Source of the DNA: an uncultured Gemmatimonadaceae bacterium
GTDB taxonomy: Bacteria > Gemmatimonadota > Gemmatimonadetes > Gemmatimonadales > Gemmatimonadaceae
Assembly (NCBI GenBank): GCA_963822945.1
Contig: CAWGJO010000012.1
Span: 64,001 to 128,000, forward strand
DNA length: 64,000 nucleotides
Direction: 5' to 3'
Positions 28,902 to 32,439 of this stretch are shown here, piece after piece (within the stretch, counting starts at the first letter, position 1; every line of letters starts with the position of its first letter). The notes beneath the pieces are model-generated. The model did not search any database. It saw nothing but the letters and a program-made list of their open reading frames with translations, and was not told the origin of the DNA. A program made the translations under genes and the position numbers.

Positions 28902-30504
<1,603 letters not shown>

Positions 30505-30507
30505 ATA

Positions 30508-30589
30508 ACTGAGAAGAGGCGGAACCGAGAAACGACGCAGGGCCGAGACTACGCAGGGCATGAACAGCGCAGGGCCGAAACCGCGGGGA
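30508..30589. repeat. Left arm of an imperfect inverted repeat (three 16-bp units) flanking the four-helix-bundle gene
   Basis: 30523-30546 AACCGAGAAACGACGCAGGGCCGA is the exact reverse complement of 31372-31395; 30508-30559 matches rc(31359-31410) at 45/52. Units: GACGCAGGGCCGAGAC, TACGCAGGGCATGAAC, AGCGCAGGGCCGAAAC. Confidence 0.9.
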
Positions 30590-30601
30590 TGTGGAGGAGT
30601 T

Positions 30602-30656
30602 GAAACAGCGGATTTGGGAAAGGACGAAACAGCGAATTCGGGAAGTTACGAAACAG
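30602..30656. repeat. 24-bp direct repeat, about 2.3 copies
   Basis: GAAACAGCGGATTTGGGAAAGGAC / GAAACAGCGAATTCGGGAAGTTAC / GAAACAG. Confidence 0.8.
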
Positions 30657-30703
30657 AAAGATACGGCGTGGGGTGGATTGTAGCCGCAGGCAGCATATCC
30701 GGG

Positions 30704-31078
30704 ATGCATCGTGCCGTTATGAATACGGCGACCAACGTGCGGGATCTGAAGGTCTGGGACGCGGCGCGAATGCTGGCCCGTGAAGTGCGCCGGGTAGCGG
30801 AGGCCGCGCGGGGAGAGGGGTCGGGCGACGTGTGGGCCCAGGCGAAACGTGCCGCCGACTCGGTTGGGGCGAACATCGCCGAAGGGTGCGGGCGCCCGAC
30901 GACGGCCGACCGGCGTCGGTTCTTCTCAATCGCGGTCGGCTCCCTTCGCGAAACCCAACATCATCTGCGTAGCTGCCACGACTATGGCCTGCTCGAAGAA
31001 CGAGAGTACCTGCGGCTGGCAGGCCTGGCGAGCGTCACACGGCGCATGCTCGAATCCCTGTCGGCCCGCCTGCGCTGA
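30704..31078 (+). CDS. Four helix bundle protein (23S rRNA-IVP / Avd-like family); alternative start at 30719
   Basis: RDLKVWDAA..Q.KRAADSVGANIAEGCGR....RRFFSIAVGSLRETQHHL.....YGLL is the typical family pattern. Confidence 0.9.
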   Translation: MHRAVMNTATNVRDLKVWDAARMLAREVRRVAEAARGEGSGDVWAQAKRAADSVGANIAEGCGRPTTADRRRFFSIAVGSLRETQHHLRSCHDYGLLEEREYLRLAGLASVTRRMLESLSARLR

Positions 31079-31130
31079 ACGTTGGATGCATGGACGGCTT
31101 GGAGGTCGAAAGGCGAAACGCTACTCCACC

Positions 31131-31290
31131 TTGTTGATCGCCGTTGATGGCCGTTGATGGCCGTTGATCGCCGTTGATCGCCGTTGATCGCCGTTGATCG
31201 CCGTTGATCGCCGCTAATCGCTGTCGCACGCCGCTGCACGCTGTCGCACGCTGTCGCACGCCGCTCCTCGTCGTTTCACGGCGTTTCAAC
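31131..31290. repeat. 10-bp tandem array, about 16 units in register with a drifting consensus
   Basis: TTGTTGATCG, CCGTTGATGG x2, CCGTTGATCG x5, CCGCTAATCG, CTGTCGCACG, CCGCTGCACG, CTGTCGCACG x2, CCGCTCCTCG, TCGTTTCACG, GCGTTTCAAC. Confidence 0.93.
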
Positions 31291-31312
31291 CCGCTTCTGG
31301 AGTGCTTCCGAC

Positions 31313-31410
31313 TCCCCGCAGTTTCGGTCCTGCGCCGTACCGGCCCTGCGTCGTTTCGGTCCTGCGTGGTATCGGCCCTGCGTCGTTTCTCGGTTTCGCC
31401 GCTTTTCGGT
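31313..31410. repeat. Right arm of the inverted repeat (four 16-bp units)
   Basis: GTTTCGGTCCTGCGCC, GTACCGGCCCTGCGTC, GTTTCGGTCCTGCGTG, GTATCGGCCCTGCGTC (31321-31384), then GTTTCTCGGTTTCGCCGCTTTTCGGT; reverse complement of the left arm. Confidence 0.9.
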
Positions 31411-31416
31411 TCGTGG

Positions 31417-32439
31417 TTACGCCGTAGCCAACTCCCCTTTCAACATCCTCTCCGCCAACTGCACATCATCCCGGCTGCCGATGTACAACGGCGTCCGCTG
31501 GTGCAATTCCGTGGGCTGTACGTCGAGCACGCGGTTCGTGCCGTCGCTCGCCAGCCCCCCGGCCTGTTCCACGATGAACGCCAGGGGATTGGCTTCGTAC
31601 AGCAGGCGGAGCTTGCCGTCGGGCGATTTGGTGTTGCGCGGATAGGCGAAGATTCCGCCGCCGAGCAGGTTGCGGTGGAAGTCGGCGACCAGCGATCCGA
31701 CGTAGCGAATGCTCAGCGGCTTGCGGTCGCCCTCCAGCCCGCGGTAGCGACGCATCAGCAATCGCACCTCGTCGCTCCACAGTTGCTGGTACGAGTCGTT
31801 GACCGACAGGTACCGGCCGACGGGCGGGATCTGAATGTTGGGATGCGAGAGCAGGAACTCGCCGATCGACGGATCGAGGGTGAATCCGTGGGCACCCTGC
31901 CCCGTGGTGTACACCAGCATCGTGCTCGATCCGTAGATGACGTAGCCCGCCGCCACCTGGCGCCGCCCCGGCTGCAGCATGTCCTCCATGACCCCGTCGC
32001 GGCCGCGCGTGATCTTGGGGACCACCGAGAAGATGGTGCCCACCGGCACGTTCACGTCGATGTTCGACGATCCGTCGAGCGGATCGAAGAGCAGCGCGTA
32101 CTTGCCGGTCTTGAACTCGCGCGGAATGGGGACGATCCCCTCTTCCTCTTCCGACGCCATGGCGCAGAGACGCCCCGTGTGGTCCATGGCCTTGACGATC
32201 GTCTCGTTGGCGAAGATGTCGAGCTTCTGCTGGATCTCGCCCTGGACGTTTTCGTGGTTGGCTGAGCCGAGAATGTCCACCAATCCCGCGCTCCGCACCT
32301 TGTTGGTGATCAGCTTGGCGGCCAGTGCGAGATCGTACAGGATGTTCGACAGATCCCCGCTGGCGTCGGGATGCAGTCGTTCCTGCTCGATGATGAAGCG
32401 CTCGATGGTGACGACGGACGTCGAGGAGTGATTGACCAC
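31417..32439 (-). CDS. fbp: Fructose-1,6-bisphosphatase class 1
   Basis: [48 protein letters not shown]. Confidence 0.96.

Follow-up and report, generated by a model that had tools for sequence, protein, structure and literature searches.

How the short tandem repeats found between bacterial genes arise is, to our knowledge, an open question. Bacterial repeats of the BIME and STRR types are non-coding and dispersed, lie between genes, consist of short units and often occur as inverted pairs. For REPINs a partner gene has been described, that of the RAYT transposase, and these repeats are reported to decay once the RAYT is lost (10.1101/2021.07.10.451892). The protein family considered here, the four-helix bundle PF05635, has been described in two other settings. 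Members lie in intervening sequences (IVSs) that RNase III excises from 23S rRNA, and the S23p ORF of the Coxiella IVS is enclosed by complementary ends and reported as decaying and untranslated (PMC4990558). The best-studied relative is Avd of the diversity-generating retroelements (DGRs), a pentamer that binds a nucleic-acid stem-loop and whose shown ligand is RNA (10.1101/2023.10.23.563531); DGR targets, as described in one study, form a DNA hairpin or cruciform with a GC-rich stem and a GRNA loop (PMC3240598). Structures have been solved for PF05635, and the account of the IVS ORFs gives no known function for the family outside DGRs (PMC4990558).

The locus reported here lies in the window, a stretch of 64,000 nucleotides from an uncultured Gemmatimonadaceae bacterium, between two host genes on the minus strand: fbp (class 1 fructose-bisphosphatase, 31417..32433, stop codon 31417-31419, NF006778 above cut-off) and mcm (methylmalonyl-CoA mutase N-terminal-domain family, TIGR00641, 28902..30504, ATG at 30502-30504). 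On the plus strand of the gap (30719..31078) is a gene for a 119-residue protein of pI 10.3 that belongs to a genus-specific clade of PF05635/TIGR02436. The first-pass annotation had described a lone four-helix-bundle gene antisense to fbp and mcm, and the gene indeed scores over both profile cut-offs (81.2 bits against 24 for TIGR02436, 86.7 against 33.8 for PF05635). It is enclosed by a left arm (30507..30585, plus strand, purine-rich reading) made of 16-bp units with the core ACNRCGC, and by a right arm (31333..31411, minus strand) that is an inverted copy of the array. The arms are complementary at 64 of 79 positions and align with a score of 98; the highest score reached by 30 shuffles was 44. 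The 16-bp unit given earlier was confirmed, and the 24-bp perfect core, which is the longest perfect run between the arms (30523-30546 paired with 31372-31395), the 45 matches in 52 over the outer part (30508-30559), and the gaps of 3 bp to the mcm ATG and 6 bp to the fbp stop all proved exact. Neither transposase nor sharp termini were found in the cassette, no direct repeat of at least four bases was found across its outer ends, and no reverse transcriptase (RT) lies beside the gene; the earlier description had likewise given no transposase, RT or visible target-site duplication.

The space between arms and gene is filled by other elements. The inner shoulder of the left arm, together with a 24-mer repeated 2.3 times (30602-30656), occupies 30586..30656 on the plus strand; it resembles the shoulders of the gene-less copies described below and is without their GNA-triloop hairpin. 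Beyond it lie TATCTT (30658..30663), a -10-like hexamer on the mcm (minus) strand that was found in 7 of 11 carriers and whose sequence makes it a possible mcm promoter within the cassette, and CATCGT (30707..30712, plus strand), a -10-like hexamer exactly 6 nt 5' of the four-helix gene's start codon. On the other side of the gene, 10-mer tandem arrays (GTTGATCGCC repeated 8.9 times, then a second 10-mer repeated four times; 31133..31264, plus strand) are followed by the right arm's inner shoulder together with its innermost unit (31265..31332, minus strand). The 10-mer arrays are fast-changing and not dispersed; they differ from those of the closest relative, G012, despite 99% identity of the two proteins, and the region matching 31133-31264 contains a 28-mer in G001 and a heptamer in G007. 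Relative to G012, mcm carries one extra base near 30020 that shifts its frame in the assembly, and acs, elsewhere in the genome, is split into two overlapping frames (L100:2707-2749); both are probably assembly indels.

With ATG 30719 as its likely start, the protein is predicted to form four helices (pLDDT 91). Its best solved relative by sequence is 2GSC (XCC0516, E 4.6e-8), and 2GSC (TM 0.82) and 2RLD (TM 0.81) are the top structural matches to the model, while Avd (4DWL) matches at TM 0.73 with E 0.056 and 11% identity. By likeness to these three proteins it would form a pentamer; we know of no catalytic function for the four-helix-bundle fold. All 11 orthologues have a YANNNT hexamer exactly 6 nt ahead of the start, an arrangement found at 562 of 89506 ATGs in the genome (0.6%), and we predict from this spacing that the gene has its own leaderless promoter and is read from an mRNA that starts at 30719 and thus lacks the upstream arm. 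A consensus scan found no terminator and no full sigma-70 promoter. Values of dN/dS against the window gene range from 0.02 to 0.39 across 10 pairs, and are rough because dS is 0.8-1.5 in 9 of the 10; they indicate that the gene is under purifying selection. A code relating amino acids to repeat units was considered and set aside: a few residues differ between the proteins of 15-mer and 16-mer arms, but the differences track kinship.

Among the 30 fbp loci examined (17 within the genus and 13 from other genera), the gene lies between fbp and mcm in 11 of the 17 genus genomes, antisense and inside inverted arms every time, with arm identities of 57-99% and with 11 of 11 loci above their own shuffle maxima. 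In the six genus genomes without the gene the fbp-mcm gap is about 34-195 bp, with an arm remnant kept at the site in one of them, G004, and the gene is absent from fbp-mcm in all 13 loci of other genera, so that the empty sites which the first-pass annotation had proposed to seek in relatives do exist. The 11 carrier proteins form one clade (support 96/100), no clade member was found at other sites in non-carriers, and a search of 121 family genomes at E 1e-22 matched two, both of this genus. One unpublished genome, G022, is included in the fbp loci and in the 121 family genomes; none of the conclusions depends on it. Non-carriers, which include genomes 95-99% complete, are nested among carriers, and presence of the gene changes 5-6 times on three host trees. 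The gene is long-resident and single-copy, at one site and in one orientation. The earlier suggestion of a currently mobile unit sits poorly with this record of one clade, site and orientation in 11 of 11 carriers, and with purifying selection. Host genes group G016 with G010 and G004, and an AU test of a group picked after the trees were seen rejects joining the four-helix genes of G010 and G016 (p 0.031 for protein, 0.025 for DNA); this conflict between gene and host trees suggests one allele replacement. In G010 the arms at the gene, rnd and glk are of the 16-type and the units at acs of the 15-type, as would be expected if an allele replacement had been followed by partial conversion of distant arrays, a reading that concerns a single case.

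The arms belong to a family found throughout the genome, with 20 sites: two at the cassette, seven gene-less doublets and 11 solo arms. By crude gene calls the sites fall at gene ends, with one ambiguous, and the purine-rich arm comes first in 7 of 7 gene-less doublets. A unit profile built from 139 units, in which six positions are fixed by the anchor, gives about 80% identity for two independently drawn arms, against 81% seen at the cassette. We take the neighbours of the arm sites to include ruvB, queA, rnd, glk, acs, alaS, fbp and mcm, some of these names being our assumption. The acs arm has a conserved promoter-like motif on one side and the ATG on the other; several further arms are bordered by a stop codon and a terminator-like hairpin. 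Solo 16-mer arms often face a heptamer or octamer array across a terminator-like hairpin or promoter (L090, L092, L094, L095, L099, L100), and mosaic doublets, composed of a 16-mer arm and an array of another family, have the same purine-first polarity. The earlier alternative, that the arms are a genome-wide family unlinked to the gene, holds in its first part and fails in its second, since the family tracks the gene as set out below. GxxExxY genes (TIGR04256) were also considered as owners of the 16-mer and rejected: this genome has three, and each lies between inverted arms that are shorter and built of other units (L005, L006, L007; G000 C20, C33). These genes with their arms possibly constitute a parallel system with a different protein family.

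Of 24 genomes, 8 contain the 16-mer dimer (80, 91, 61, 12, 11, 6, 5 and 3 copies), and these are precisely the carriers whose arms are 16/17-mers; 15-mer dimers number 52, 30 and 29 in the three carriers with 15-mer arms and one in G010. As the dimer patterns were derived from carriers, we also used a type-free pattern of three ACNRCGC cores 15-17 apart. This occurs 77, 83, 58, 64, 46, 67, 40, 20, 8, 47 and 48 times in the 11 carriers, counts that include the arms of the cassette itself, compared to 0, 0, 2, 1, 2 and 0 times in the six non-carriers, and reversed-pattern controls in the genus gave 0-1. Chains of at least three cores occupy 23 of 42 carrier sites compared to 0 of 24 non-carrier sites at four orthologous junctions, namely ruvB-queA, rnd-sufT, glk-pfkB and the 5' end of acs, and decayed remnants of arrays are present at inherited sites in G006 and G004. 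The unit at distant inherited sites follows the type of the genome, changing from 16 to 15 bases jointly with the arms of the gene. The three host trees yield 2, 5 and 3 independent pairs on supported branches, all in the same direction; the best of these tests (5 pairs) gives p 0.0625.

A second family, of octamer arrays, varies with its own PF05635 paralogue. The nine genomes with the octamer paralogue have 138, 112, 88, 41, 33, 19, 13, 8 and 3 arrays (the octamer gene being frameshifted in the one with 19), and the eight genomes without it have 12, 5, 1, 1, 0, 0, 0 and 0. The octamer gene and arrays are kept in G003 and G004 (13 and 8 arrays), from which the long-unit pair is absent, whereas G001, G002, G005 and G007 keep the long-unit pair and have 1, 1, 0 and 0 octamer arrays. 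This double dissociation means that a genome-wide tendency to lose repeats fails as an explanation. The 12 octamer matches of G014, an incomplete assembly in which no octamer-clade gene was found, are an exception to the link. In G017, an incomplete assembly from another genus, a related 15-mer gives 77 matches, most of them of reversed polarity, and the exact unit is missing from all 11 PF05635 loci. As a prediction from outside the genus G017 counts against the link: five of its paralogues have 13-16-base arms with related cores, none an exact match to the dispersed unit, and group outside this clade. Some PF05635 genes of G017 are flanked on both sides by complete palindromic doublets (L212-L219, L223-L231). 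Each of the separate paralogue clades has arms of its own unit type, and the link between protein and repeat-built flanks that had been proposed for checking is supported by the carrier and non-carrier counts, the unit switch and the octamer replicate. The expectation that paralogues in general have inverted flanks is borne out for most of them and not for an atpA-linked clade, with 16 loci at one site and no clear arms, which looks domesticated. That clade (L004:1488-1893, L060-L074) is divergent, occurs in 16 of 17 genus genomes and is without the usual RRAAxS motif. Broken PF05635 paralogues, useful as examples of recent loss, were seen in the pth-ychF clade in G009, G012 and G010, and in the octamer clade in G010 (L049, L056, L050, L051).

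Most arm sites are inherited. From 41 selected arm sites in five relatives, 30 have a flank that maps to this genome, and 21 of these carry an arm here too; the eight junctions inspected among the nine unshared sites hold no arm remnant in this genome, which amounts to gain or complete loss. All five mappable solo arms of G012 are at shared sites, with four G012 loci unmapped. New copies are thus rare, given the 21 shared sites in 30 and the five shared solo arms. The interiors of the doublets are less stable. Compared to G012, with flanks 92-98% identical, three of five comparable doublets have cleanly inverted interiors, and compared to G001 one is inverted, two are not and one is ambiguous. 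In the octamer clade, whose genes occupy three different loci in the genus, a block of the paralogue and yajQ is inverted between octamer arms in three genomes relative to four others (the arms enclose both genes at L002:1373-2585, L048, L054 and L057). These inversions do not by themselves show an enzyme at work, because template switching is reported to produce inversion between inverted repeats passively (PMC8604942) and to homogenise inverted repeats without a dedicated protein (PMC5941160).

The 941-nt region folds to a long stem with z -3.9 on the fbp-mcm strand and -5.1 on the other. Read on the sense strand of the upstream gene, discordances in 36 doublets comprise 233 G.U versus 257 A.C, and those at fbp-mcm 79 versus 66; the sole skewed site is glk-pfkB, which favours the antisense strand. 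A wobble bias was rejected, as the window cassette folds better on the gene strand but the bias is gone across orthologues. Opposite units match no better than shuffled partners at eight variable positions (p at least 0.35), in a small sample of 60 unit pairs from 21 doublets with the register anchored at the inner end. A search for Rfam matches at E 1 in five loci found none. The wobble and compensation tests, on this modest sample, give no sign of selection for an RNA stem.

A feature of a different kind is a hairpin, GGCC-GNA-GGCC. Among 42 gene-less doublets from 11 genomes, a set that includes orthologues, 33 carry it once and none twice. It is found in 7 of 7 gene-less doublets of this genome and in 0 of 11 gene cassettes, and its place is one arm's shoulder, mostly at 27-29 nt from the last core. 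The triloops of the 33 doublets are GAA (16), GCA (13) and GGA (4), noticed and counted in the same data; in the genome as a whole, a GNA loop is present at 47 of 874 GGCC-NNN-GGCC sites per reading. As reported for DNA mini-hairpins, only GNA among the 64 triloops forms a stable one and RNA versions are much weaker, measurements that were made on GC-GC stems, with CC-GG acceptable but weaker (PMC13037366). The GNA triloop offers a suggestive parallel to the DGR target loop, where the four-helix fold has a known role, although the loop here has three bases and that of the DGR target, as described, is GRNA (PMC3240598).

Set beside REPIN-RAYT systems as these have been described, the locus is alike in having a single-copy, vertically inherited gene at a fixed extragenic site (here 11 of 11 at fbp-mcm, with one possible allele replacement), doublets dispersed outside genes, each made of two inverted repeats with a short variable spacer between them (here seven gene-less ones), and repeats that decay when the gene is lost (here with independent pairs reaching p 0.0625 at best). 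It is unlike them in that the repeat-flanked gene encodes a PF05635 four-helix bundle and not a Y1/HUH transposase, the arms consist of tandem 15-17-base units instead of short REP palindromes, the majority of sites are inherited within the genus, and the doublets have a GNA hairpin at the side and undergo inversion in place. As the defining transposase is missing, the system falls outside REPIN-RAYT. The Coxiella IVS shares the family PF05635, an ORF enclosed by complementary ends and, as reported, a patchy distribution (PMC4990558), but the cassette lies between fbp and mcm rather than in rRNA and antisense to the surrounding operon, its gene has a predicted promoter of its own and evolves under purifying selection rather than decaying as reported for the Coxiella ORF, RNA pairing gives no sign of selection, and the arms recur genome-wide. 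Avd resembles the protein in fold and in being basic; no RT stands beside the gene or was found in five of six carriers searched, and no template/variable repeat pair was seen here, unlike in DGRs. MITEs likewise are described as non-coding, dispersed, intergenic repeats, short-unit and often in inverted pairs, but here, in contrast to MITE, BIME and STRR repeats, no cognate transposase, target duplication or sharp termini were found and persistence is tied to a specific non-transposase gene.

We propose, at about even odds, that the four-helix protein binds the repeat as folded DNA and so keeps the repeat family alive in the manner of a RAYT, with host enzymes supplying the chemistry. The protein would recognise the ACNRCGC core at 15-17-base spacing, on folded DNA rather than RNA, and would maintain the family by promoting strand exchange among arms, leading to inversion, change in unit number, conversion and rare new copies; alternatively, it may shield hairpins from deletion. 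Cutting and copying would probably fall to host enzymes. A RAYT or RT as the driver was rejected: Y1 transposase (PF01797) is found in 0 of 6 carrier genomes (88-99% complete), and RT (PF00078) is absent from this genome and present in one of five other carriers, away from this locus. Besides this lack of a partner enzyme, what speaks against the proposal is the RNA ligand of Avd, the p of 0.0625 from the independent pairs, the rarity of new copies, the passive route to inversions, and the arrays of G017 and G014.

Another role for the protein, rather unlikely in our judgement, would be that of an RNA-binding regulator, an Avd-like pentamer that reads 15-17-base units in 5' and 3' UTRs and tunes transcript stability or translation, with sites kept by host selection and decaying once the protein is lost. 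Such a role would account equally well for the link in presence and absence; the protein is basic, most arm sites are inherited, arms abut starts and stops (the promoter-like motif and ATG at acs, stop codons and terminator-like hairpins elsewhere), and in Avd, as reported, five protomers all contact one RNA stem-loop, the same residues holding flipped-out bases (10.1101/2023.10.23.563531). However, the neighbouring genes share no obvious function and wobble pairs show no strand bias, and a regulator leaves unexplained the DNA-type triloop, the shared shoulders that change in concert and the free flipping of doublet interiors. The cassette might also be an intervening sequence of the fbp-mcm mRNA, its arms pairing as RNA and the stem being cut out by RNase III with the help of the protein. 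We give this very little credence, as the first-pass suggestion of an IVS-like element meets no excess of G.U over A.C across 36 doublets, no better match between opposite units than between shuffled ones, a gene that is antisense to the operon with a predicted leaderless mRNA free of the upstream arm, and solo arms at 11 of 20 sites in this genome. The precedent for it is that family members lie in RNase III-excised 23S rRNA IVSs (PMC4990558), and here a long stem does form when either strand of the region is folded. RNase III may in any case cut a long imperfect stem, whatever its origin.

The gene may instead be a passenger that once landed in one doublet of a family sustaining itself through slippage, template switching, recombination or some enzyme, gene and repeats later being lost together through a shared cause. 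That the independent pairs fall short of p 0.05, that G017 and G014 (incomplete assemblies) have arrays without a matched gene, and that template switching reportedly homogenises inverted repeats without a dedicated protein (PMC5941160) all speak for such a history. We nevertheless consider it improbable, because loss is family-specific and not genome-wide, genomes of 95-99% completeness are among the non-carriers, the gene has a conserved promoter signature and evolves under purifying selection, and the arms of separate paralogue clades are each of a distinct unit type. More improbable still is that gene and arms are an active transposase-less mobile cassette with the gene-less doublets as its deletion derivatives. 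Short fbp-mcm spacers without the gene in other genera do imply that it was inserted once, the octamer clade occupies three loci, the AU rejection for G010 and G016 suggests an allele replacement, and 9 of 30 mappable sites are unshared. Against this, the 11 clade members all share the fbp-mcm site and a single orientation, with none found elsewhere, no clade match turned up in other-genus genomes among the 121 searched at E 1e-22, and neither target duplication nor sharp ends were found; the gene-less doublets are not simple deletion products, since the triloop hairpin is missing from all 11 gene cassettes.

We put forward tentatively a wider and more doubtful reading of the family: PF05635 proteins may be dedicated factors of undescribed resident repeat systems, in which each paralogue would read its own tandem unit on extruded hairpin DNA while host enzymes drive inversion, conversion and slow spread of gene-less doublets without transposase or RT. 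The 23S rRNA IVSs would then be copies that landed in rRNA, and Avd a captured member. We found no description of the link between gene and repeat in the literature covered, most subscription journals lying outside that coverage; what is new here is the paired loss, the double dissociation, the concerted switch of unit at inherited sites, and the inversions.

The genus offers matched pairs of protein and motif (16-mer, 15-mer and octamer) together with repeated natural knock-outs, as well as a candidate for an allele swap in nature and two outputs that can be measured, namely how doublets invert and how they are lost. If upkeep is active, it would be a second way, unrelated to the first, of achieving REPIN-like persistence, and would give rise locally to inversions able to include host genes.
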